A stretch of DNA of 64,000 nucleotides from Treponemataceae bacterium (GTDB lineage Bacteria > Spirochaetota > Spirochaetia > Treponematales > Rectinemataceae): NCBI GenBank assembly GCA_963678065.2, contig CAXXVZ010000003.1:2335562-2399561 (forward strand), in the 5' to 3' direction. Both the position numbers and the translations under genes were made by a program. Below the pieces are notes generated by a model. It did no database searches and was not told where the DNA came from. It saw only the letters and a list, made by a program, of their open reading frames with translations. Within the stretch, counting starts at the first letter, position 1. Each line of letters starts with the position of its first letter. Below are positions 2,677 through 38,972 of this stretch, piece after piece.

Positions 2677-4914
2677 ATGAACTGCGTCATCGTCCAGCCC
2701 CCCTTCGTCCAGCTCAACACCGCCTATCCCGCCGCCTGGTACCTCGAGTCTTTCCTCCGCTCGCGCGGGCACAAGGCGGAGGCCTTCGACCACTCCATCG
2801 AAACCTTCCACTCGATTTTCTGCCGCGCGGGACTTGAACGCGTATTCGCGGACGCGGCTATCGCGTGGGATTCCATGTCGACGACGGCTGACGAAGCGAC
2901 GCGCAGTCAGGTCGAGCGCTACTTCTCGAGTCGCAGGCTCTACATCGACTGGATCGACGACATCATGGCCTTTCTCTCGGGCGCCGATCCCGGCTTCGCC
3001 CACAGACTCGCGTCTGCGGCCGAGCGGCCAACCGGCTTCAAAACCGAGAACTGGCTCGAATCCACCGGTGGCCGCCCCGGCCCGGAAGAAGCCCGCATCC
3101 TCGCGACCCGCATCCTGGAGGACATCGCCGACTTCATCTCCTACGTCCTCGACCCCGATTTCGGCACGGTCCGCTACGCGGACAGGCTCGCCTCGGGCAT
3201 AGCCGACTTCGGCGCCCTCGAGTCCCGCCTGGATTCTTCTTATATAATGGTAGAATTCTACCGTCCCCTCGTCCGCGCCTTTCTTGAAGCGCGGCCAGAG
3301 GTGGATATCTTCCTCGTCACCATTCCCTTCCCGGGCTGCCTCGCCGGCGCCCTCAGCCTCGCCCACGAGATCAGGCGTGCGCGTACAAGCCAGGCCCCCG
3401 TCCTCTTCGGCGGCGGCTACGTCTCGACAGAGCTCCGGAACCTCGCCGATCCCCGCATCTTCGATTACTGCGACTATCTCTGTTTCGACTCGGGCTACGG
3501 CGCCCTGGACTCCATCCTCCGTTTCCTCTCCGGTGGGGACTCAGGGGATCTGCGGCAGCTCATGTACCGCGACGCATCAGGACTCATCGTCCGTCGCGGC
3601 ATCGACGGCGGCTCGGAGGAGGATGCCGATCGCGCTGAAACCGCCGAGATGATAGCGACCACCTTCCCCGACTACTCGCACCTCGATTTCGGCCGCTACC
3701 TGCGCGTCGTCGACTCCGACAATCCCATGCACCGTCTCTGGTCCGACACGCCCTGGCTCAAATTCCATCTGGCCCACGGCTGCTACTGGCACCGCTGCGC
3801 CTTCTGTGACACGAACCTCGACTACGTCGCAAACTACATCCCCGCCGATATCGACACGCTCGTCGCCGCCTGCGCGAAATCCGCCGAGGCCACAGGCCTC
3901 TATGGCATCCATTTCGTCGACGAAGCCCTGCCCGTCGGAAAGCTCCTCGCCTTCGCCGAGGCCAACCGCCGCAGACAGAAGGAGGGCAAACGCCCCTTCC
4001 ATTTCTGGGGCAATGTCCGCTTCGACGCATCCTGGACAGCCGAACGCTGCGAGCTCCTCGCCTCCTCCGGCCTCGTCGCCGTATCCGGCGGCATCGAAAT
4101 CGCCAGCGAGCGCGGCCTCGCGATGACCGACAAGGGCTTCGACCTCGCCGGCCTCGTCCACTGTCTCGTCGGCATGAAGAGCGCCGGGCTCCTCGTCCAC
4201 GCCTACCTCATCTACGGCTTTCCCGCCCAGACCGAGCTTCAGATCGTCGAGTCGGCCGAGACAGTCAGGCAGGTATTCGCCTGCGGCCTCATCGACTCGG
4301 CCTTCTGGCACCGTTTCGTCCTCACCCGTCACTCCAGCATGTACAGAGAATGGGAAGCCGGCCTCATTCCCGGCCTTGAGCCGGAGGACGCTCCGCGCCT
4401 CTTCGCCGACAACGACCTCTCCTTCGCCGGTTCGGCCCGCTTCGACCGCTTCGACGATGCCGTCACGGCCTCCCTCGCCGCCTGGATGTCCGGTGAAAGC
4501 CTCGACCGGCCCATCTGGGAGTGGTTCCCTGGCTTCCCGAAGAAAGACCGCGCCCTCCTGCCCCACCCCGAACTCATAGAATCCCTCATCGAGGCGGCCC
4601 AGTCCGGCATCGAATCCTCGCTCTGTGCGGCCCCTCCGACCACATCGCGCGCCTACTGGACGGCCGGCCTCCCCATCTCCTCTGTCTCCGGCCGCAGCGC
4701 AGTTTCGGCAAGCGGCCTCTCCTGGACCCGCCGAGGTGCCACAGCCCATGCCCCCATGTCTGCCGACTCCGCCAGACGCATCGCCGCCGCTGTAGAGGAG
4801 CTCGCCGGGCGCCCCGAGGGCATGAATTCTGCGGACTTCCTCGCCTCAGCCTTTCCCAGCGACGACACGAAACTCCTCAACCTGCTGCGCGGCGATGGTC
4901 TTGTCTTTGTTTGA
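2677..4914 (+). CDS. B12-binding-domain radical SAM protein
   Basis: PPFVQLNTAYPA N-terminus and CYWHRCAFC (CxxxCxxC); TATAAT just upstream of the ATG at 2677. Confidence 0.85.
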   Translation: MNCVIVQPPFVQLNTAYPAAWYLESFLRSRGHKAEAFDHSIETFHSIFCRAGLERVFADAAIAWDSMSTTADEATRSQVERYFSSRRLYIDWIDDIMAFLSGADPGFAHRLASAAERPTGFKTENWLESTGGRPGPEEARILATRILEDIADFISYVLDPDFGTVRYADRLASGIADFGALESRLDSSYIMVEFYRPLVRAFLEARPEVDIFLVTIPFPGCLAGALSLAHEIRRARTSQAPVLFGGGYVSTELRNLADPRIFDYCDYLCFDSGYGALDSILRFLSGGDSGDLRQLMYRDASGLIVRRGIDGGSEEDADRAETAEMIATTFPDYSHLDFGRYLRVVDSDNPMHRLWSDTPWLKFHLAHGCYWHRCAFCDTNLDYVANYIPADIDTLVAACAKSAEATGLYGIHFVDEALPVGKLLAFAEANRRRQKEGKRPFHFWGNVRFDASWTAERCELLASSGLVAVSGGIEIASERGLAMTDKGFDLAGLVHCLVGMKSAGLLVHAYLIYGFPAQTELQIVESAETVRQVFACGLIDSAFWHRFVLTRHSSMYREWEAGLIPGLEPEDAPRLFADNDLSFAGSARFDRFDDAVTASLAAWMSGESLDRPIWEWFPGFPKKDRALLPHPELIESLIEAAQSGIESSLCAAPPTTSRAYWTAGLPISSVSGRSAVSASGLSWTRRGATAHAPMSADSARRIAAAVEELAGRPEGMNSADFLASAFPSDDTKLLNLLRGDGLVFV

Positions 4915-5028: not shown

Positions 5029-5078
5029 AAACTATGGGCGGTGCAAGAGTCGAACTTGCGACCCCCAGCGTGTCATAC
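5029..5078. repeat. att site: duplicated 3' part of tRNA-Val
   Basis: AAACTATGGGCGGTGCAAGAGTCGAACTTGCGACCCCCAGCGTGTCATAC, identical to 11845-11894. Confidence 0.95.
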
Positions 5079-5426
5079 GAGAGGAACGGCATTAGCCCGC
5101 GTTAACGCACTTAATCACGCGATGCATAAAACGTGATGAGGGAAGAACTAAGCTTCACCTGACTACTAGCCCAGTTTATCGCGGTTTAGTGCGCTTTGCA
5201 AGAGCGGGCGGTAACGTGGCGAGTGTCAACGGAAAATGAGACTACCACTAGCATTAGCTGGGGGTTATGTTTTGAGCATATAAAGCTCCCAGTTTTGACC
5301 GCCTCACAGAAGCCCCTTTTATAGAAGGCCTTTGAATAATCGACGCGCAAGGGGTGTTATAGTATGCGACCCCTTTGGTTAATCGTTTTGAAAACACCCT
5401 AAATGGTAGCTTTTAATATTGCCATG

Positions 5427-5455
5427 TTGACTTTCTAAGATACCTATGATATCTT
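5427..5455 (+). promoter_or_regulatory. putative sigma70 promoter of the satellite rightward operon
   Basis: TTGACT-17 bp-TATCTT with a TG extension. Confidence 0.5.
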
Positions 5456-5480
5456 TTCCCATTGACAAGAAGGGGGGAAT

Positions 5481-5996
5481 ATGGCAGGAAATATGCAGAT
5501 AGGTATTAGGGTGTCGGAAGAAGAAAAAAAGGCCTTTGATGTTATTGCAGATAAGCCCCTTGTAAAAAGCAATCGGGGCCTATTCCGCCAGTTTTTAGCA
5601 GTTTACCTTCCTTTCGGATCGTATGCCCTTCACCTAAAAGCCGCTGATCTTTCCGCCGAGATCGCATACCGGGAAAAAAAGGCCGAAGCCATAGCCGCCG
5701 AAAAGGCATCCGCATCTGAGGAAAAAGCCTATGAGCTAGAATTGGAAGCGGCCGCAAATACTGTCTTCCTGGGAAATGCTCGAATCGACGCCGAGATCGT
5801 GGTGAAAATGCTTGACCTCATCGCGAACACGATCGAGGAGGTTAGGAAGTCCCCCCTTGATATTCCTAATAATCGACAAGGTGTTAACCGCTTTGCTGAA
5901 AGCATGATACGCACCTACCGACTCAATACTGACCCTTGCTATCGGCGGAACATGGAAATCAATAGCCTAGTGCCGAAAGAGGACACGGACGAATAA
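5481..5996 (+). CDS. hypothetical protein, possible N-terminal ribbon-helix-helix
   Basis: MQIGIRVSEEEKKAF has an RHH-like pattern; strong RBS. Confidence 0.55.
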   Translation: MAGNMQIGIRVSEEEKKAFDVIADKPLVKSNRGLFRQFLAVYLPFGSYALHLKAADLSAEIAYREKKAEAIAAEKASASEEKAYELELEAAANTVFLGNARIDAEIVVKMLDLIANTIEEVRKSPLDIPNNRQGVNRFAESMIRTYRLNTDPCYRRNMEINSLVPKEDTDE

Positions 5997-6015
5997 GGAA
6001 ACGGAGCAAAATGGC

Positions 6016-6300
6016 ATGAACGGGATCGCGCAAGAGCTTATTATACAAAAAGATACATCGGATTCCGGGCAGAAAAAAATCCCCCGGATTCGCGGTCTCA
6101 CCTCCCTTTCAGCGATACGGAAAGAGATTGTCAAAGTGTATTGCGAAGCGAAGGCCGCCGGGGCAATCCCTGACAAGATTACTTTCTACCGTGGTTTGAC
6201 CTACATTCTCTCGGCGGCCGCCCAGGTCAAGAAAGACGAATCACTAGACCTCATAGAAGAGCGGCTAGAGAGACTTGAGGAGGCAAGGGGAAATGAATAG
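6016..6300 (+). CDS. hypothetical phage-like protein
   Basis: RBS; C-terminal coiled coil LIEERLERLEE; coupled to the next ORF. Confidence 0.6.
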   Translation: MNGIAQELIIQKDTSDSGQKKIPRIRGLTSLSAIRKEIVKVYCEAKAAGAIPDKITFYRGLTYILSAAAQVKKDESLDLIEERLERLEEARGNE

Positions 6301-6469
6301 AGCAATAATCGCCCGCGTTAACGCACTCGAAACGCGCAATCGTCGCCTTGCTATTTTCCTTATCGATGAAGTGAAGCTCGGCCATGAAGCAGCAAGGGCG
6401 GAGATAGAGAAGATAGAGGTGGATTCAGAACGGCACGGGATTGAGCCAATCTGTATCGTATTTGACTAA
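6293..6469 (+). CDS. small hypothetical protein
   Basis: Overlaps the upstream stop codon; begins MNRAIIARVNALE. Confidence 0.5.
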   Translation: MNRAIIARVNALETRNRRLAIFLIDEVKLGHEAARAEIEKIEVDSERHGIEPICIVFD

Positions 6470-6604
6470 CGGCCCGGCCTTATCCGGGAAGGGCTCGGCC
6501 TTTTAATCCGAAGTAAGTGGCGCGCGCGGCCTTAATCCGCACGCTAACGGCCCGGCGAATCCGAGGTAAAGTGGCTCGGCCTTATTCCGAGGAAAAGCGG
6601 CTCC
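6468..6604 (+). repeat. five imperfect tandem units (AAGTGGCNCGGCCTTAATCCG-like) in the capsid leader
   Basis: Units at about 6468, 6488, 6512, 6541 and 6565; paralogous to 10265-10352 on the minus strand. Confidence 0.8.
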
Positions 6605-6639
6605 TTACGGGGAAGCATCCAACGAAATGAGGTGAAGTC

Positions 6640-7485
6640 ATGGCTCTTTCAGCCGCCACTATTCCCGTCCAAGTATCCCGCATGATTCTTGAGACTCTCA
6701 AGGAAATTCTTGTATACGCGAAGCTTTTCAATCAAGACTACCAGGGGGAAGTATCCTTCGGCTCTGATTTGAAAATCCCTTCTATCGGAGCTGTAACGAT
6801 CGAGGATTATGAACGGTATACCGACCTGACCGGCCAAAACGCGGCCGACTCGTCCGTTACCCTGGCAATCAATAAACAGAAAGCTTTCGAGATTGTTCTG
6901 GACGATATCGACGAGGTACAGGCCGTCCCGAACATTCTTTCGGCCTATCTTGTGGATGCCGTCTTCGGCCTACAGAAAAAGATTGATACCGACCTGGCCA
7001 CTGAGCTGGCAAGCGCGGGAACCCTCGTGACCGGTTTCGGGACTTCTACCACGCCGATTGAAGTCAACTCGGCCAACATCTGTACGCAACTCCGAGCGAT
7101 GGCTATGGCTATGGACAACGCCCTAGTTCCGCGCATGGATCGGGCTATCATCCTTCCGCCCTGGGCGATTGAGAAGCTCACCCTTGCTTCCATCGTCAAC
7201 GCCACGGATAACACGGACGCGATGGCTAACGGCATCGTAGGCAAGTACGCGGGATTCAATATCTACATGAGCCCGCTTGTCCCTAACACGGCTTCGGCGA
7301 AGTATCGCATTCTCGCCGGTTCTCCCCGTTCCGCTACCTATGCGGTTCAGATCGAGAAGACCGAGAAGCTTCGGCACCCTAAGCAGTTCGCGGACATCCT
7401 GCGCGGCCTTTGCGTGTACGGCGCGAAGACTACCAGGCCGGGTACTGTCATCAACGGCTATTGGAACCTCGCCGCCGAGGCGTAA
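6640..7485 (+). CDS. major capsid protein (P22-coat-like, HK97 fold)
   Basis: IPVQVSRMILETLK..VYAKLFNQDYQGEVSFGSDLKIP, GKYAGFNIYMS and FADILRGLCVYGAKTTRP patterns; GAGGTG RBS. Confidence 0.8.
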   Translation: MALSAATIPVQVSRMILETLKEILVYAKLFNQDYQGEVSFGSDLKIPSIGAVTIEDYERYTDLTGQNAADSSVTLAINKQKAFEIVLDDIDEVQAVPNILSAYLVDAVFGLQKKIDTDLATELASAGTLVTGFGTSTTPIEVNSANICTQLRAMAMAMDNALVPRMDRAIILPPWAIEKLTLASIVNATDNTDAMANGIVGKYAGFNIYMSPLVPNTASAKYRILAGSPRSATYAVQIEKTEKLRHPKQFADILRGLCVYGAKTTRPGTVINGYWNLAAEA

Positions 7486-7566
7486 CTAGACCCTAGTCCG
7501 GCCGCCGTTGGCGATAACCGGCTTAGATAGCGCTTGTGTGGCCATGGGCGCGCGTTCATTCGGTCT

Positions 7567-7599
7567 GCCCTCCCTGAGCAAAACGGGGAGGGCCTTTTT
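7567..7599 (+). terminator. terminator after the capsid gene
   Basis: GCCCTCCC...GGGAGGGC hairpin followed by a T-run. Confidence 0.7.
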
Positions 7600-7700
7600 A
7601 TCGTTTACACCCCAAAATGTATCCATAAAGGTAACGCGAAAAATGAGCCCGCTGTAAGTCGCCCCCCTCTATCGAATTACAACGGGCTACCACTTGCCTA

Positions 7701-8012
7701 TTATGCTGAGAGCTTAGGATTCCATGGAGATTGTAGGCCCATTTCGTTAATGAGTAGCCCTTCACTGGGCGAGAGGTCGCCTTCCTCCGCGTCGTATGTT
7801 TTCAAGAGTAAGTCCCCGGCAAGCGCGAAAGCTTCCAGTTGGTCGCCAAGTAAGGCTATACGCGGATCGTCAACGAAAAGCTCGGCCGAGAGAACACGCG
7901 CCTCATTTCGCCGCGCCCGAATCCAGGAAACAAGCCCGGCCCTGTCGCCCCCGAAAAAGTCTGTTGCCCCTGCCATAATCTCCACGAATGTTTTCAGCTG
8001 TCGAATATCCAT
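7701..8012 (-). CDS. hypothetical protein
   Basis: GGAGG RBS before MDIRQLK. Confidence 0.55.
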   Translation of the reverse strand: MDIRQLKTFVEIMAGATDFFGGDRAGLVSWIRARRNEARVLSAELFVDDPRIALLGDQLEAFALAGDLLLKTYDAEEGDLSPSEGLLINEMGLQSPWNPKLSA

Positions 8013-8076
8013 GTTCTTTTCCTCCCAAATAATCGGCCCCGAGGGCAGAGCCACAAGGCCACGCCCCCGGTAGCCC

Positions 8077-9591
8077 TTACCAGATTTCCAGTTCGTCATC
8101 GGCCTTGACGGGTAGCACTTCGCATCTGCTACCGCTACTTTCTGCTTCCTTGCTTATATCTTTATCAGGTATAACGTTAGGCTCGAATAGGGAGCGGGTA
8201 GCAGTTGATTCCAGGTAGCGCGCGAATATTTCCTTGAAGTCTTCCACGCGGTAAGCCCGCGCGTTCCGCCCCGCCGTCTTCATTTGAACAGATTGAATCC
8301 CGAACGGCTTCAAGTACCGTGCAAGGTTGTTTTTAGAGAATCCCTTTCCCCCGGCGAATCCAGGCCACGGATGATCTTCAAGTGAAAGTAGATACTCTAC
8401 AACCTCTTCAGAAGTGAATGCGGTTTTATAGGTAGCCGAGGAAAAGAGCGCTCGGAGGTCGCGGAGTAGTAGCGTCCTCACGTCGTCGTCGTCGCTATCA
8501 GATTGTGCGCATACCGCTATAGCTGCCTCTCGGGCTATCCTTGACCACTCTCCCCCAGCTACGTCTGCAATACGCAAAAGCTCGCGCCATGCGTCCGCTT
8601 GCCTGTCGTTCAATTCAATGGGTATTTGAGGGTCAATGGCAGCTATCTTTTTTTGACTATCCGTCGTCCATCTAACGATACGACGACGAAGCTCTTCAAA
8701 GCCTTGGTCTTGATCGGCGCGAAGGCGTTCGACCGTTTCCTCTCCCTTTTTCCGCTTCATCGGGATGAGGAGTGCCCTATCGGCCAGCGTTGACGGAAGA
8801 TGTCCTATAAGCCCGAGAGCCTTCGGGCACCACGTCGAAAAAATACGCGGTTCTTGATCTTCGCCTGAGCATCGAATGGCATAGGCCGCCGTCCGTGAAA
8901 AACTCGCGTTGACAAGTGTCCTTAGGTCTTCATTTTCCTTGAAGATCGAATCCGCTTCGTCAAGAACAAGAGTAGGCCTAAACTTTTCAACTACCCTAAA
9001 GAGTGCAGCGCTTGTAATCGTAGAAGCAGGAAGGGCTTTCAAGGCAAGGCGTGATACTACTTCAAGAGCTGTTGTCTTTCCGCATCTTTTAGTTGCCGAG
9101 AAGAAAACCAAAAGAGGCAAACAAGCGGCATGATCGACTAGGTAGGACAAGGTAAGCCATAGAGCCATCGATTCAACCGCGTACGGAGGCGCTATCAGGA
9201 AGCGCCGAATCTGTTCGACCAATGAATCTAGAAGAGTTGCGCCATCTACGCGGCTAGGCCATGCCTCAGGCGCTTCTAGCGCGATTTCACGGCCCTGTGT
9301 CACCTTCTCGGGTTTCGCTTCCCGACGGATTCGATCGAGAAAAGACGGGCGGACTACATACTCTTTCGCTAGGGCCTTCCGCTGCGTCTCGTATTCCTCA
9401 TCGCTCAAGGAAATAATTTTTTCACGAAGCCCGGAAGTATCTGCTACCTCGCTACCATTTGCACCTATCTCGTCTTCCGATCTGCAATTAGGTTCGGTAA
9501 CATTCGGTAGCGGTAACGGATTCAATCTGCTACCCGGTATCGGGGCGAGTAAATCGGCGGCGCCGGGGGAAGGTAAGTCTTTATTTCCCAT
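8077..9591 (-). CDS. DUF3631-family replication-associated protein
   Basis: EAWPSRVDGATLLD, KRCGKTT P-loop, PTLVLDEAD and LNDRQADAWRELLRIADVAGGEW are typical of DUF3631 proteins. Confidence 0.8.
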   Translation of the reverse strand: MGNKDLPSPGAADLLAPIPGSRLNPLPLPNVTEPNCRSEDEIGANGSEVADTSGLREKIISLSDEEYETQRKALAKEYVVRPSFLDRIRREAKPEKVTQGREIALEAPEAWPSRVDGATLLDSLVEQIRRFLIAPPYAVESMALWLTLSYLVDHAACLPLLVFFSATKRCGKTTALEVVSRLALKALPASTITSAALFRVVEKFRPTLVLDEADSIFKENEDLRTLVNASFSRTAAYAIRCSGEDQEPRIFSTWCPKALGLIGHLPSTLADRALLIPMKRKKGEETVERLRADQDQGFEELRRRIVRWTTDSQKKIAAIDPQIPIELNDRQADAWRELLRIADVAGGEWSRIAREAAIAVCAQSDSDDDDVRTLLLRDLRALFSSATYKTAFTSEEVVEYLLSLEDHPWPGFAGGKGFSKNNLARYLKPFGIQSVQMKTAGRNARAYRVEDFKEIFARYLESTATRSLFEPNVIPDKDISKEAESSGSRCEVLPVKADDELEIW

Positions 9592-9862
9592 AGACGTACC
9601 CCCGGTATGCCCTCAGCCCAGGAAGCAAGTGGCGCTTGCCCTTTCCCTCTCGTATGATTGAGAGAACCCAGTTTTCCCATTCGGACTCGGCTATGTCGGC
9701 GAGGTAATAGGCAAGTTGGTCACGGCTTATCGTCGGGCAAAGTAAGAAGGATTCTTCCCTAACTAGGAACAATTCGTCATGCCTGTTCAACCCTATTTTT
9801 GTCCGTGGGGTTGAGAGAACGCGACGTATCGCGGCCATGTTCGGCGTTTCAGCGGTGCTCAT
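9581..9862 (-). CDS. hypothetical protein
   Basis: Translationally coupled within the xis operon. Confidence 0.55.
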   Translation of the reverse strand: MSTAETPNMAAIRRVLSTPRTKIGLNRHDELFLVREESFLLCPTISRDQLAYYLADIAESEWENWVLSIIREGKGKRHLLPGLRAYRGYVYGK

Positions 9863-10041
9863 TTTGCACCTGCCTTGCGCTGTACTGACGCGGACACGTC
9901 TACGCGCGATATTTCCCCTTGGTGGAAAATCAAGGTAATACCAGCGCTTCCAAATTGAGGGGCGTTTCCTAAAAGCTCTTTCAGGTAAGGGGCGGCAACT
10001 TCAAAAAGCTCGGCCGCTCGGGTGCTGTTCGCGGCGGCCAT
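9859..10041 (-). CDS. small hypothetical protein (DUF2292-like fold by pattern)
   Basis: PQFGSAGITLIFHQGEISRV, similar to 45295-45519. Confidence 0.55.
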   Translation of the reverse strand: MAAANSTRAAELFEVAAPYLKELLGNAPQFGSAGITLIFHQGEISRVDVSASVQRKAGAK

Positions 10042-10042
10042 G

Positions 10043-10225
10043 CTAGCGCACCTCGCCCGCGAGAGCCTGAGCAAGTAGGGAGTCAATCGCACTTACAGGA
10101 ACAAGACGCCTTCCACCAAGGCGAAGCGAGGGGAGCTTACCAGATTCGCACCAGCGATAGGCAGTAATTTCGTGAATTCCAAGGATAGTCGCAACTTCCG
10201 CGACTGATAAGAATTTCTTTTCCAT
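10043..10225 (-). CDS. excisionase-like HTH protein
   Basis: LSVAEVATILGIHEITAYRWCESGKLPSLRLGGRRLVP fits the HTH_17 pattern. Confidence 0.85.
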   Translation of the reverse strand: MEKKFLSVAEVATILGIHEITAYRWCESGKLPSLRLGGRRLVPVSAIDSLLAQALAGEVR

Positions 10226-10264
10226 AGCGTTTACCCGTGCAAGTAGGCTTAGCGCGCCCATAAG

Positions 10265-10352
10265 AGCGGCTTTCCCCCGGATTAGGCCGGGCCACTTGCA
10301 AGCGGATTAGGGCCGCTAGCGCCACCTACCCCGGATTAAGGCCGGGCCACTT
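10265..10352 (-). repeat. three tandem units of the same leader motif, upstream of xis
   Basis: Minus strand reads AAGTGGCCCGGCCTTAATCCGG / GTGGCGCTAGCGGCCCTAATCCGC / AAGTGGCCCGGCCTAATCCGG. Confidence 0.8.
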
Positions 10353-10562
10353 CTTAACGATATTATAGTTTTGCTATCATTCTAATTATATTTGCTACCT
10401 TTTTAGAATATACTCTCTTTAGTTAATATTAGCAAGTGTATATCCCTAAAAATGGAGCTGAGGTAACACGCAAGGTATTCACTCCCGGCCCCTCCGTCCT
10501 AACTCACGCCCCGCCGTGGTTTATCACGTGGATACCCTCCGCCTTATACGCGGGAGGTATAG

Positions 10563-11741
10563 TCATTTCCCGCCCCCGGCCGCCTTCGCAATACTTCCAG
10601 ACAGCGCGCCATCGAATGCTATACCGGCCGCGCCGATGTCTATAATCTCAGAATGCGCCGAATAGCGTTGCATCATCGCGCCGGTTCTATGGCCCGCCAA
10701 GCGTTGAATGGTAAAATCGTTTAGCCCAGCGACACGCCCGGCAGTCACGAAAAAGTGACGTAGCCCGTGCATGAGGAGATTCCTTTCTTTGCGTTCGCTT
10801 TCATCGATACCGATTTTTTCAAGGATACGCTTGAATCCGCGTTCGATTGTCTTTTTCTCTATTGGTCGCTCGGGATTCTTTTCACCGAATAGGACATAGC
10901 CGGCACCGGCGGGCGCACAAGCCCGGCAGAGCTTAACGGCTTCAAGAACGGGCGCGGAAAGCGGAACGTCTCGCTTGGAACCGCATTTCGGACTCTTGCA
11001 TCCTTCGCCATCGATCCAGTTATGAACGATATGAACAAGCCCGGCCGCTTCGTCAACGTCGGCCCATTGGAGCCCGCGCGCTTCGCCCAACCTGAGCCCG
11101 CATAGCCCGCCCAATAATACGGCCGCCTTGGCTCGGGGCGACTCGCCTTCAAGATTGACGATTCGGCCCATTTCATCGAGCGAGAGTACCCCGCGTTCGC
11201 GCGGATGCTCGGCGACTTTCTCAAGGTACTGGAATGGGTCTAGCGCCCGGTGTTTCCTTGCCCAGGATGAGGCGGGAACCTTTATAGCTTGTAGCATATA
11301 GTTAATCGTTCGAGGATTGACGCCGGATTCCGCAAGGTCGAGGACGATCTTTTCCATGCGCGTTATGCTCAGTTTATGAAAGCGAATATCCTTGAGGGGT
11401 TGGCTAAGGTATTTTCTGATTACGGACGCATTATTCGCGATATAGGCCCTTGAGAGCGGCCGCCCTTGAAGTTTTCGCATTCGCGCATAGTCGCTATCTT
11501 CGCGCCAGAATCCAAGGAAGAAATCCAGGGCTAGAGGATCGGCGGACGCGCCGCCCTCTCCTTTGTCCAAGAGGGCCTTCGCCTCCCCTGCGGCGGCGGT
11601 TCGATTCGTTGCCTTGAGTGTCTTCGTCCGAACGACTTCGCCATCGTCGGAAAAGTACCGGGCGCAGTAGCGAATGACCGGCTTCCCGGTAACACGATCC
11701 CTTGAATTGCGCTTAAAAACAGAAAACGGAGCGCGCGCCAT
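10563..11741 (-). CDS. tyrosine integrase of the tRNA-Val element
   Basis: GLRLGE, PKCG, HGLRH, LAGH and RY catalytic motifs; next to the att site. Confidence 0.92.
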   Translation of the reverse strand: MARAPFSVFKRNSRDRVTGKPVIRYCARYFSDDGEVVRTKTLKATNRTAAAGEAKALLDKGEGGASADPLALDFFLGFWREDSDYARMRKLQGRPLSRAYIANNASVIRKYLSQPLKDIRFHKLSITRMEKIVLDLAESGVNPRTINYMLQAIKVPASSWARKHRALDPFQYLEKVAEHPRERGVLSLDEMGRIVNLEGESPRAKAAVLLGGLCGLRLGEARGLQWADVDEAAGLVHIVHNWIDGEGCKSPKCGSKRDVPLSAPVLEAVKLCRACAPAGAGYVLFGEKNPERPIEKKTIERGFKRILEKIGIDESERKERNLLMHGLRHFFVTAGRVAGLNDFTIQRLAGHRTGAMMQRYSAHSEIIDIGAAGIAFDGALSGSIAKAAGGGK

Positions 11742-11850
11742 AGAGTCCCCTTTTACCGCGTGTATCAAACACGGTAACTTGAGCTTTGGCGGTCTCCGTT
11801 TTCGGTTGACCGAATGTCCTAATTCCTTTCGCTTCTAACACTTAAAACTA

Positions 11851-11924
11851 TGGGCGGTGCAAGAGTCGAACTTGCGACCCCCAGCGTGTCATACTGGTGC
11901 TCTAACCAACTGAGCTAACCGCCC
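11851..11924 (-). tRNA. tRNA-Val(GAC)
   Basis: GGGCGGTTAGCTCAGTTGGTTAGAGCACCAGTATGACACGCTGGGGGTCGCAAGTTCGACTCTTGCACCGCCCA. Confidence 0.95.
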
Positions 11925-12055
11925 ATTCACATCACCGCCAGATTTCCTGACGCGGACACAAAGACTGTATATCAAACTCCGCCTTACCCTGTCAATACTC
12001 CCCCGGAATTCCCACCTTGTTCATGCACATCGATAAAATGAACGAACCCCGGAGC

Positions 12056-13322
12056 AGAGTTACTATGTAGAAAGAGTGTCGGTCCTTTGGGCCGGATATA
12101 ATCCGTAGTGGGAAAACAACCACAAAGGAGGCGACACTCATGACGATTGTATGCGGTATCGACGCGCACGACGGTGATCGTCGGTTACGAGGCCTGCGGG
12201 CTTGGGTACACGATCTACGACGAAGCGATGGATGAAGGATTTACCTGCTACGTCCTGGCTACGGTCAAAATGGCTAAATCGCCTGAGGACGGAAAGCGAA
12301 AGACGGACGAGTATGACGCGCAGAAAATTAGCGAGGTTCTGCGGGCTCATGAGTTGGCAGGGATGACAGTGCCGACAGTATGGGTACCGAGCAAGGCTCT
12401 GCGAGACGATAGAGAATTGATCAGGAGGCGGTTTGATGTGAAGAGCGACTCGACGCGGATCAAGAACCAGATACATGGCCTCTTAAAACGACAGGTCATC
12501 AAGTGTCCTGAAGGGCTCGGGAATCCTTGGACGAAGAGCTTCATGGCCTGGCTCAAGGCGCTCGAGTTGCCATCGGGAGCACTCGTCCACCTACGAAGCT
12601 TGATCCATCAATATGAATCGCTGAATGAGAACATCAAGGCTTTGGATAAGGCAGCCGAGGCCTTGTCGAAAACAGAACGGTATAGACGGCAGGTCGATGC
12701 GGTGACGGAAATACAGGGCGTCGGAACGCTTACCGCTATGGTGTATCTCACCGAACTTGGCGATCTAACTCGGTTTCCGAATCGAAGGACGGTCAAGGCA
12801 TATGTGGGACTCGCGCCAACGAGCCACGAGAGCGGAGAGATCAAGGATCGTAAGGGTCATATCATGCGCTCAGGTTCAAGCCGATTGCGCGCGATCTTAA
12901 ACCAGGCGGTTTGGGCACGACTTGCGCATGATGCTGAAGAACTCAAATGGTTCGAAGGCTATGTCGCCACTCATTCGGGGGGAAAGCGTAAGGCTGCCGT
13001 GGTCTGCATGTCGAGACTCTTACACCTGATCTGGCATCGAGCCCTCGAGGCTCAGCGCGAATACGAACGGGAGGTCGCCTAGCGGCTACGAACAGCATAC
13101 AAGCCAAAAGGAGTAAAGCGAGGGTTTATTAGGGAATGGTCATCATGGCAGGATACGATCGTCCGGAGCATGGCGTGCAACACCGCCGAAGCAGAGTTTG
13201 ATCTATCCTAACAGACCAGTACACTGAGCTTTAGGCATGGCCCAAACGCTCGAATAGCAGATTGTTCCTGATGACCGTTCCTTTTTTTCCTAAATAGGGC
13301 TTGACGAACTTCTACATAGCAG
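12056..13322 (+). mobile_element. IS110 family, IS1111-type element
   Basis: Sub-terminal IRs CTATGTAGAA (12063-12072) and TTCTACATAG (13310-13319); about 240-bp 3' non-coding end; flanks rejoin into a hairpin. Exact ends uncertain by a few bp. Confidence 0.8.
12140..13082 (+). pseudogene. IS110 transposase with an internal N-terminal deletion/frameshift
   Basis: RBS + MTIVCGIDAHD in one frame jumps to VIVGYEACGLG in another; KTDEYDA, GVG and YVGLAP..ESG motifs follow. Confidence 0.85.
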
Positions 13323-38898: not shown

Positions 38899-38972
38899 AT
38901 CGAGTAGGAGGGAGCCTCACGGCCCCCGTCCTCTCACACCACCGTACGTACGGTTCCGTATACGGCGGTTCG
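38899..38972 (-). ncRNA. group II intron domains V-VI (class IIC type)
   Basis: GAACCGCCGTATACGGAACCGTACGTACGGTGGTGTGAGAGG...CCTACTCGAT. Confidence 0.9.

Follow-up and report, generated by a model that had tools for sequence, protein, structure and literature searches.

Covarying mini-hairpin repeats in two operon leaders of a satellite-like island, with a possible role in gating translation

We analysed a stretch of 64,000 nucleotides (nt) from a Treponemataceae bacterium (GenBank assembly GCA_963678065.2, contig CAXXVZ010000003.1, positions 2,335,562 to 2,399,561 of the forward strand), called the window throughout, and studied an array of small hairpin repeats that lies in front of a phage-type capsid gene. 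The array belongs to an unusually small integrated island of 6.9 kb (5029-11925) at a tRNA-Val(gac) gene, whose G+C content is 0.47-0.59 against 0.60-0.66 in the left flank. Judged from its gene content, the island has the make-up of a phage satellite, i.e. one virion gene, an integrase, a replication gene and attachment (att) repeats at a tRNA. Pfam and PHROG scans of its proteins recognised a single capsid gene and no portal, protease or terminase. The capsid operon is convergent with the integrase, HTH_17 and DUF3631 genes, alongside which the island further encodes two small open reading frames (ORFs). The coordinates of all features, including the single hairpins, are collected in Table 1.

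The leader of the capsid gene is filled by an irregular array that we call U (6473-6616, + strand). It consists of five hairpin units and a terminal hairpin, and lies between an ORF of 64 amino acids (aa) and the capsid ribosome site, each unit being built of a stem of 5 base pairs (bp) and a CCUUAAU-like loop of 5-9 nt. On its 5' side the array directly follows the stop codon (6467-6469) of the 64-aa ORF, and its 3' end is 13 nt before the Shine-Dalgarno sequence (SD) of the capsid gene, GAGGTGA (6629-6635, with the ATG at 6640). A first-pass annotation, made from the sequence alone, had described five imperfect units with such loops filling the gap between the small ORF and the ribosome-binding site, and both points hold. 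The same copies were recovered by a repeat search of the window. It had further given an irregular spacing of 20-29 nt; the irregularity stands while the range does not, the start-to-start distances being 21, 31, 26 and 24 nt. Tandem Repeats Finder reports no tandem array at U when run on the window, and hence we regard the array as irregular and not as a tandem repeat. No + strand ORF of at least 40 aa crosses it.

A second array, V, was overlooked in the first-pass annotation. It has three units and a terminal hairpin (10346-10252, - strand) and is placed between an AT-rich promoter-like stretch and the HTH_17 gene, in the same orientation relative to its gene as U. An identical unit type, in one orientation relative to the following gene, heads two genes on opposite strands of the window. 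Promoter-like hexamers 5' of V are TTGCTA-17-TATATT (10435-10407) and TATAAT boxes at 10390-10385 and 10367-10362, and V1 begins 9 nt 3' of a TATAAT box. The gap from the array to the HTH_17 start (ATG 10225) is 29 nt, and the equivalent gap in a related island described below is 49 nt, which leaves no room for a promoter 3' of the array. In the same promoter region the heptamer TAGCAAA occurs twice (10371-10397, - strand), each time 0-3 nt 5' of a TATAAT (GGTAGCAAATATAAT and GATAGCAAAACTATAAT), and this duplicated string may be an operator or a duplicated promoter.

Two related islands could be compared with that of the window. One of them, L013, is a complete and similarly small metagenome island of 6 kb at a tRNA-Lys(ttt) gene with 42-bp repeats, and its capsid protein is 67% identical to that of the window. 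Its genes, which are all on one strand, include the HTH_17 gene and, ahead of the capsid gene, the three small ORFs known from the window, but no DUF3631 gene. It carries arrays at the two homologous places, W and X, both on the gene strand, and a promoter-like sequence of its capsid operon (TTGACT-17-TATAAT) is found in the same place as in the window. The other is a sister island in the window's own genome (L009, C3:1824500-1834500), which extends over about C3:1826143-1832534 at a tRNA-Leu(gag) gene. Its HTH_17 gene, DUF3631 module and V array are 99.7% identical to those of the window over 2908 bases, its integrase has diverged (64% DNA identity), and the 94- and 64-aa ORFs are present as diverged copies in inverted orientation. 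A lipoprotein-like gene occupies the place of the capsid gene, and there is no U array. This arrangement suggests that the two islands, which share one cell, have recently exchanged the replication module.

The way in which the arrays are distributed over these islands bears on a possible role in DNA, where the repeats would serve the DUF3631 protein as iterons or as single-strand initiation hairpins, or a terminase as a pac/cos-type recognition array. Like origins, the V and W arrays border on an AT-rich stretch, two separate arrays recall the ori and crr sites of P4, and repeat arrays are common in terminase recognition sites. However, L013 has both arrays and lacks the DUF3631 gene, while the sister island has a nearly identical replication module and only one array. 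The capsid array accompanies the capsid gene, not the replication genes, and the arrays are oriented as the genes are, on opposite strands in the window and on one strand in L013. A 5-bp stem is too short for extrusion from a DNA duplex, and no terminase gene was recognised in the island. We consider roles of this kind highly improbable. A packaging signal, which was among the functions offered by the first-pass annotation for the capsid leader, is unlikely because the regulator operon has the units in its leader too, and this second array is retained by the capsid-less sister island.

The hairpin repeats are confined to this island family. The consensus given in the first-pass annotation, with up to 3 mismatches allowed, has 4 matches in the window against 1.0 expected, a number reached by 2 of 100 shuffles; all 4 lie inside the island, three of them in U and the fourth, a perfect one, at 10332-10348 on the - strand. 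We built a covariance model, R1, from 14 units with 5 pairs and ran it on the whole genome of 5.27 Mb. It gave 15 matches at E<=10, of which the best 8 (23-35 bits) are all in the window island or the sister island. In 68 further genomes of the family R1 has no match at E<=0.01. A repetitive or dispersed extragenic palindrome of the host is rejected on these grounds, with the strong matches confined to the two islands and a pattern search in agreement.

Searches for relatives further afield gave the same picture. The capsid protein has 28 relatives in a protein collection, at 26-81% identity (51-81% for the 27 closest), and its profile finds one distant locus in a collection of species genomes, one in IMG/VR and 17 in metagenomes. 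On these 19 loci R1 has no match except in L013; upstream regions were inspected at 15 of them, and 14 have a scaffold-like gene abutting the capsid gene and no array. Among 401 genomes at the level of the order, five have a capsid match, the window's own genome included, and three of these loci that were examined (L030-L032) have no arrays. The 94-aa ORF, a marker of the island family, was found only in the window's own genome among 401 genomes of the phylum and has no match in IMG/VR. The DUF3631 protein occurs in one other genome of 300 (G226, 44% identity), where the HTH leader has no such array, and not in IMG/VR. Three pattern scans of IMG/VR yielded only single chance hits, at most 21 bits with R1, and blastn of both arrays against 50,697 phage records found no match.

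The hairpin unit is not in any Rfam family. At gathering thresholds, Rfam gives three tRNAs and one group II intron domain in the whole window and nothing at either array. At E up to 10 there are no matches in 6400-6660 and three weak ones in 10200-10460 (E 0.12-5.8), all far under their gathering scores; the sole one that touches an array is AgvB, which overlaps V1 with 12.8 bits (gathering 56). The literature searched holds nothing on this element, and no paper with the term DUF8136, the label of the database relatives of the 94-aa ORF, was found.

The stems of the units covary across arrays and islands. We aligned 14 clear units of the four arrays (U and V of the window, W and X of L013) with MAFFT, with W3, one non-unit and X0 dropped. 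In this alignment 67 of the 70 stem cells pair and three of the five stem pairs change on both sides; the second pair (columns 10 and 28) is CG in six units, UA in five and GC in two. The covariation score of the 14 units was reached by none of 500 shuffles. There are at least four stem types, all complementary and two of them common to both islands, the variants being CCCGG/CCGGG, CUCGG/CCGAG, CUUGG/CCAAG and AGCGG/CCGCU. A second set of 16 units was assembled with no selection for pairing, as non-overlapping matches to a GG and a CC that enclose a loop of 5-11 nt, which has an A/T-rich end and no more than one G; it includes two doubtful members, W3 and the non-unit near the L013 capsid start. 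At the three outer stem positions of this set, Watson-Crick pairs are found in 40 of 48 cases against a permutation mean of 27.2, and none of 100000 permutations of the 3' halves among units reached 40. When identical stems are collapsed, 22 of 30 positions are paired against 13.9 (P 0.0005). Genome-wide, 2.8% of 24138 core matches have all three outer pairs. The array is thus conserved and covarying in L013, and of the multi-hairpin RNA proposed in the first-pass annotation the hairpins are borne out by these counts, their function being a matter of interpretation.

The variable geometry of the units suggests a folded single strand. The loop lengths are 6, 9, 7, 5 and 7 nt in U, 7, 7 and 6 in V, 9, 11, 10, 9 and 7 in W and 9 and 8 in X, and the unit spacing over all arrays is 21-31 nt, neither contiguous nor in helical phase. 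Loops of 5-11 nt together with such a spacing fit a folded single strand and not a reading frame or a dyad operator with fixed spacing. Variable loops are hard to square with a dimer on duplex half-sites, which would be rotated against each other by more than half a turn. The position of each array between a promoter region or an upstream cistron and the next start codon makes RNA the likely strand. The units are therefore likely to fold as small hairpins in the mRNA leader.

A coding repeat was considered and rejected, as the loop lengths differ by numbers that are not multiples of 3, V1 has an in-frame stop and no peptide is conserved. ORFs of 59 aa (L013 1878-2057) and 62 aa (window 10137-10325, - strand) do span the arrays of the HTH leaders; their peptides are TRPSNPGK- or ARPNPGE-like, the frames are not conserved between units, and we treat both ORFs as by-products of the repeats. 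Two further ideas were dropped. For a pseudoknot between the purine-rich 5' flank and the pyrimidine-rich loop, the best helices summed to 61, against 56.6 with permuted loops (P 0.09) and 58.0 with shuffled flanks (P 0.2). Mimicry of a tRNA T-arm or anticodon arm was given up because most loops fit neither arm; a loose array scan also caught tRNA genes (L106), and some loops contain CUUUUAA, as in tRNA-Lys.

The sequence outside the stem is also conserved, the loop (CC..AAU) and the 5' flank (AAGUGRC) being shared by the arrays and by both islands. This bears on the explanation that the hairpins are generic mRNA stabilisers or processing sites, which would protect against nucleases and set the ratio of the capsid to the upstream proteins with no specific factor. 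If transcription starts from the TATAAT at 10367-10362, V1 would come to lie close to the transcript's 5' end or directly at it. The array before the capsid gene is in an intercistronic gap and precedes the gene whose product is required most, and the isolated hairpins are moderately stable (-2.0 to -7.9 kcal/mol), which would suit such a role. A stem alone would do for this purpose, yet loop and flank are conserved across islands whose capsid proteins are only 67% identical, and the complementarity to the start regions, which we describe below, would be unexplained. We find this explanation improbable.

DNA operators for the HTH_17 protein are the main rival to an RNA element. In this case the HTH_17 protein (excisionase- or BldC-like), or the 171-aa protein encoded first in the capsid operon, would bind the direct repeats in duplex DNA as a multimer and repress or activate both operons, with autoregulation at the HTH leader and a roadblock or activation before the capsid gene. 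In each of the three islands the V or W array is followed directly by the HTH_17 gene, V1 has a typical operator position relative to its TATAAT box, and the unit number differs between arrays, as in such operators. The nearest solved relative of the HTH_17 protein is BldC (6ama, E 9e-5; NCBIfam HTH_BldC 4.8e-6, under the curated cut-off), and each BldC protomer is reported to occupy a 9-bp site, with the sites arranged as direct repeats and variable numbers of them bound head-to-tail (PMC5859096). The likeness thus consists of a BldC-related protein encoded beside an array of direct repeats of variable number. Compared with the 9-bp sites of BldC, the island units differ in that they are 21-31 bp apart and are covarying inverted repeats with a variable inner spacing. 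Recognition of the duplex gives no reason for covariation of the outer stem, the half-palindromes are 5-11 bp apart, and the units are spaced without contiguity or helical phase. It also leaves unexplained the complementarity to the start regions and a compensatory long-range helix, both given below. We hold the operator explanation to be unlikely.

A repeat unit in the capsid leaders could pair with the start site in place of forming its own hairpin. In the predicted folds of the leaders, the hairpins of U5 and X1 have a pair probability of 0.0 in context, and both units pair with the capsid start region, so that the hairpin and the start-site pairing exclude each other. In the window, 6579-6586 (GCCUUAUU, the stem end and loop) pairs with 6626-6633 (AAUGAGGU, most of the SD), and 6571-6576 (GUGGCU, flank and stem start) pairs with 6636-6641 (AGUCAU, which extends into the start codon by two bases). 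The corresponding pairing in L013 joins the SD, its flank and the start codon to the loop, 3' stem and spacer of X1.

Complementarity between a unit and the downstream start region is present in all four leaders. We compared the best duplex between each array and its start region with those from 500 shuffles of the start region, and also with those from shuffled arrays. The duplex energies are -25.8 kcal/mol for U (window capsid), -26.5 for V (window HTH), -20.2 for W (L013 HTH) and -20.2 for X (L013 capsid), against means of -19.2, -19.3, -12.6 and -11.9 with shuffled start regions. The fractions of shuffled start regions that gave an energy as low are 0.024, 0.036, 0.016 and 0.016, and those of shuffled arrays are 0.032, 0.08, 0.008 and 0.012, respectively. 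The predicted probability that the SD is unpaired is 0.0, 0.08, 0.08 and 0.19 in the four leaders, 0.0 being that of the window capsid leader. The whole start region of the window capsid gene is unpaired with a probability of 0.16 against 0.40 with shuffled upstream sequence, and a fraction of 0.01 of 100 shuffles was as low. From the complementarity of one unit to the capsid ribosome site, translation control, which the first-pass annotation had named among several functions, gains some computed support.

The HTH leaders have in addition a long-range helix between the 5' flank of the next-to-last unit and the sequence just 5' of the start. In the window it joins UGCAAGUGG (10300-10292) with CCUACUUGCA (10247-10238) by 9 bp, one of them G.U, with pair probabilities of 0.62-0.89. 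In L013 it joins CCGUAGAGUG (1955-1964) with CACUCUACGG (2041-2050), with probabilities of 0.86-1.0. When the two leaders are aligned on the hairpins, four positions of the helix differ on both strands and still pair. The count was made by a script.

The sense strand is hinted at by two non-canonical pairs. W2 has a U.G pair (CUUGG/CCGAG) and is an apparent intermediate between CUCGG/CCGAG and the CUUGG/CCAAG of X1, and a change from C-G through U.G to U-A on the sense strand is the usual compensatory route in RNA. The second hint is the G.U pair in the long-range helix of the HTH leader. We keep the sense strand on account of the position of the arrays and their complementarity to the start sites. 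We infer that the sense RNA is the active form, on evidence that is thin and does not settle the strand.

Hairpins in nascent leaders also recall antitermination sites. Processive antitermination of the nut or put type would have the leader hairpins, alone or with an N-like protein of the helper or the island, modify the RNA polymerase, which would then pass the terminators of both operons. The layout is like that of lambdoid nutL/nutR and HK022 putL/putR, where hairpins with 5-bp stems, free-covarying stem and conserved loop stand in the leaders of the two main operons, and one of our arrays is intercistronic. The string GCTCTTA, which resembles the boxA consensus, is found in the terminal hairpins V4 and W5, and L013 has a terminator-like hairpin with a T-rich tail (4696-4713) between the X array and the capsid start. 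However, no terminator is conserved 3' of the arrays in both islands, and the boxA-like string is in two of the four arrays only, 3' of the hairpins. The host rRNA leader has GGTCATTAACAGGAAC at the expected place of boxA, with a loose resemblance to the loops only, and mimicry of boxA by the loops was dropped for this reason. The stem length fits boxB, but the loops are pyrimidine-rich and 5-11 nt long, unlike the purine-rich boxB pentaloops. Scans of the island proteins with Pfam, PHROG and NCBIfam found no N-, Q- or NusG-like protein, which is weak evidence. Known nut and put sites have one or two copies, not the 3-5 seen here, and they are not complementary to a ribosome site. The first-pass annotation had suggested antitermination as well; it gains no support, because no conserved downstream terminator was found, and we judge it distinctly unlikely.

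Our analysis suggests, with a probability of roughly 40%, that the arrays are a cis-acting leader RNA that gates translation, the repeats being docking sites for a factor. We infer that the arrays are transcribed, that a protein binds the units and that the outcome is translational. A repeat unit or a conserved flank would mask the start site in each leader, e.g. U5 would pair with the capsid ribosome-binding site in place of forming its own hairpin. The conserved loop and flank could then be what a factor of the island or of a helper phage recognises, and this factor would free the start site by holding the units as hairpins or by occupying the flank. Several units per array might give a cooperative response. 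The second array would do likewise for the HTH_17/replication operon, and the shared units may couple capsid synthesis to the regulator/replication operon.

The proposed logic has parallels in well-known systems. In Mu Com/mom and in the MS2 coat/replicase operator, a protein on a small hairpin at the start site gates access to the ribosome site; these have a single hairpin and a known protein, unlike the array of 3-5 units in two operons. CsrB and RsmZ are like our arrays in their irregularly spaced, imperfect mini-hairpins with a conserved loop and a variable copy number, but they are stand-alone RNAs that sequester CsrA through GGA loops, as opposed to CCUUAAU-like loops in mRNA leaders. 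A GGA was found, by eye or by script, in the loop of one of 17 units (X0 of L013, AGGAT), the others being CCUUAAU-like. The ToxI RNAs of type III toxin-antitoxin systems are likewise repeat arrays transcribed before a protein gene, but their repeats are near-exact, tandem and of fixed length and are followed by a terminator and an endoribonuclease gene. In the island there is no tandem array, the spacing is 21-31 nt and the downstream genes are those of the capsid and HTH_17 proteins.

Several observations weigh against a translation-gating leader RNA. The units within an array are paralogues, and their cells in the covariation counts are not independent events. The comparison base consists of two independent islands, those of the window and of L013, and one capsid-less sister, and the co-orientation of arrays and genes amounts to two independent observations only, because each array travels with its gene. 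The sense strand has a C.A mismatch in each of U2, U3 and U4, where the antisense strand would have G.U. Relative to shuffled upstream sequence, occlusion of the start region is clear for the window capsid leader only; the fraction of shuffles as low is 0.07 for the L013 capsid leader, and the HTH leaders give 0.19 and 0.48, which is not significant. The folding energies of whole leaders are no better than those of shuffles (z -0.08, +0.30 and +0.36). Of the public runs listed for the island, none is recorded as RNA. No RNA-binding protein was identified among the island proteins, a PPR-like lead for the 94-aa ORF being an artefact, and direct repeats are known targets of the family to which the island's own DNA-binding protein, HTH_17, belongs.

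We speculate that the module might sense a helper phage. A satellite has to hold its capsid genes silent until its helper has arrived, and the known switches of satellites are protein repressors, transcription activators encoded by the helper, and RNA-based immunity in P4. If an RNA-binding protein of the helper or the island docked cooperatively on the units and unmasked the capsid and regulator/replication ribosome sites together, the arrays would form a switch at the level of translation. To our knowledge helper sensing at this level has not been described for any phage satellite, and we view this more specific idea as a rather long shot. If the gating of translation is true, the arrays would be a compact and portable RNA module for coordinated post-transcriptional control and a candidate new family of regulatory RNA, the value of which is limited by its rarity, i.e. 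two independent islands and one capsid-less sister.

Table 1. Features of the island in the window and, in the last two lines, the two arrays of the related island L013.
Feature	Position	Strand	Remarks
Left att, 50-bp direct repeat	5029-5078	.	100% identical to 11845-11894 (blastn of element against genome)
Sigma-70-like promoter of the small-ORF/capsid operon	5427-5455	+	TTGACT-17-TATCTT, TG before -10; consensus match only
171-aa ORF, first gene of the capsid operon	5481-5996	+	no family found; L013 homologue 3432-4016
94-aa ORF, marker of the island family	6016-6300	+	database relatives labelled PF26457 (DUF8136)
64-aa ORF	6275-6469	+	no family found; homologues in L013 (4355-4585) and the sister island
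U1	6473-6488	+	CCCGG / loop CCTTAT / CCGGG; isolated hairpin -7.4 kcal/mol
U2	6494-6512	+	CTCGG / loop CCTTTTAAT / CCGAA; pairing stem (C)TCGG/CCGA(A)
U3	6525-6541	+	CGCGG / loop CCTTAAT / CCGCA; pairing stem GCGG/CCGC; in-context pair probability 0.92
U4	6551-6565	+	degenerate; CCCGG / loop CGAAT / CCGAG; one internal C.A
U5	6575-6591	+	CTCGG / loop CCTTATT / CCGAG; unit and 5' flank complementary to the capsid ribosome site
U6, terminal hairpin, different from the units	6600-6616	+	GCTCCTTACGGGGAAGC (GCTCC TTAC GGGG-A-AGC)
Capsid translation-initiation region	6626-6642	+	SD GAGGTGA 6629-6635, ATG 6640-6642; predicted pairing with U5
Major capsid protein gene, 281 aa	6640-7485	+	Pfam P22_CoatProtein 2.9e-8, Phage_capsid_2 3.4e-7; PHROG 267 major head protein 6.3e-51
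Strong terminator-like hairpin closing the capsid operon	7567-7593	+	10 pairs, 8 of them GC; T-rich tail
504-aa DUF3631 protein, replication module	8077-9591	-	Pfam DUF3631 8.6e-42
HTH_17/excisionase-family gene	10043-10225	-	Pfam HTH_17 2.2e-14; TIGR01764 9e-11; start at MEKKF, as in L013
3' strand of the HTH-leader long-range helix	10247-10238	-	just 5' of the start region
V4, terminal hairpin	10270-10252	-	contains GCTCTTA
V3	10291-10276	-	CCCGG / loop CCTAAT / CCGGG; pair probability 0.86-0.98
5' flank of V3, UGCAAGUGG	10300-10292	-	5' strand of the HTH-leader long-range helix
V2	10317-10301	-	AGCGG / loop CCCTAAT / CCGCT
V1	10346-10330	-	CCCGG / loop CCTTAAT / CCGGG
AT-rich promoter region of the HTH/replication operon	10362-10435	-	consensus matches only
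Tyrosine integrase	10563-11768	-	Pfam Phage_integrase 1.5e-18; PHROG 1 9e-41
tRNA-Val(gac) 11850-11925, overlapped by the right 50-bp repeat 11845-11894	11845-11925	-	
W array	L013 1882-2010	gene strand	after TTGACA-18-TAAACT, before the HTH_17 start
X array	L013 4618-4690	gene strand	between the 76-aa ORF and the capsid start

The remaining proteins of the capsid operon gave few leads. The N-terminus of the 171-aa ORF reads to us as like a ribbon-helix-helix, and there is a weak NikA-like Atlas lead at 0.84. The AlphaFold2 model of the 94-aa ORF has three helices and a mean pLDDT of 63.6, which is too weak for a fold search. A search against solved structures matched this ORF to designer PPR proteins with E 6e-12; this value adds up ten weak hits, each of about 9.6 bits and all to a single query segment. 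It is lost once a family profile is used, the Pfam PPR models give no hit, and the ORF is rejected as a PPR-like protein. This match to designer PPR proteins is a trap for automatic annotation.

In contigs of four DNA runs no joint of an excised form was found, which is no evidence either way, and these contigs are identical at the array. A non-coding stretch of 132 bp just inside the left att repeat (5092-5223) is 77% identical to the matching end of the sister island and may be an arm-type recombination site or another end-specific site. Outside the island, the group II intron catalytic domain found by Rfam is at 38899-38970 on the - strand (49.6 bits against a gathering score of 40), and an IS110-family transposase (12147-13082, + strand; Transposase_20 8.6e-20, DEDD_Tnp_IS110 2.8e-11) lies directly past the tRNA-Val gene.

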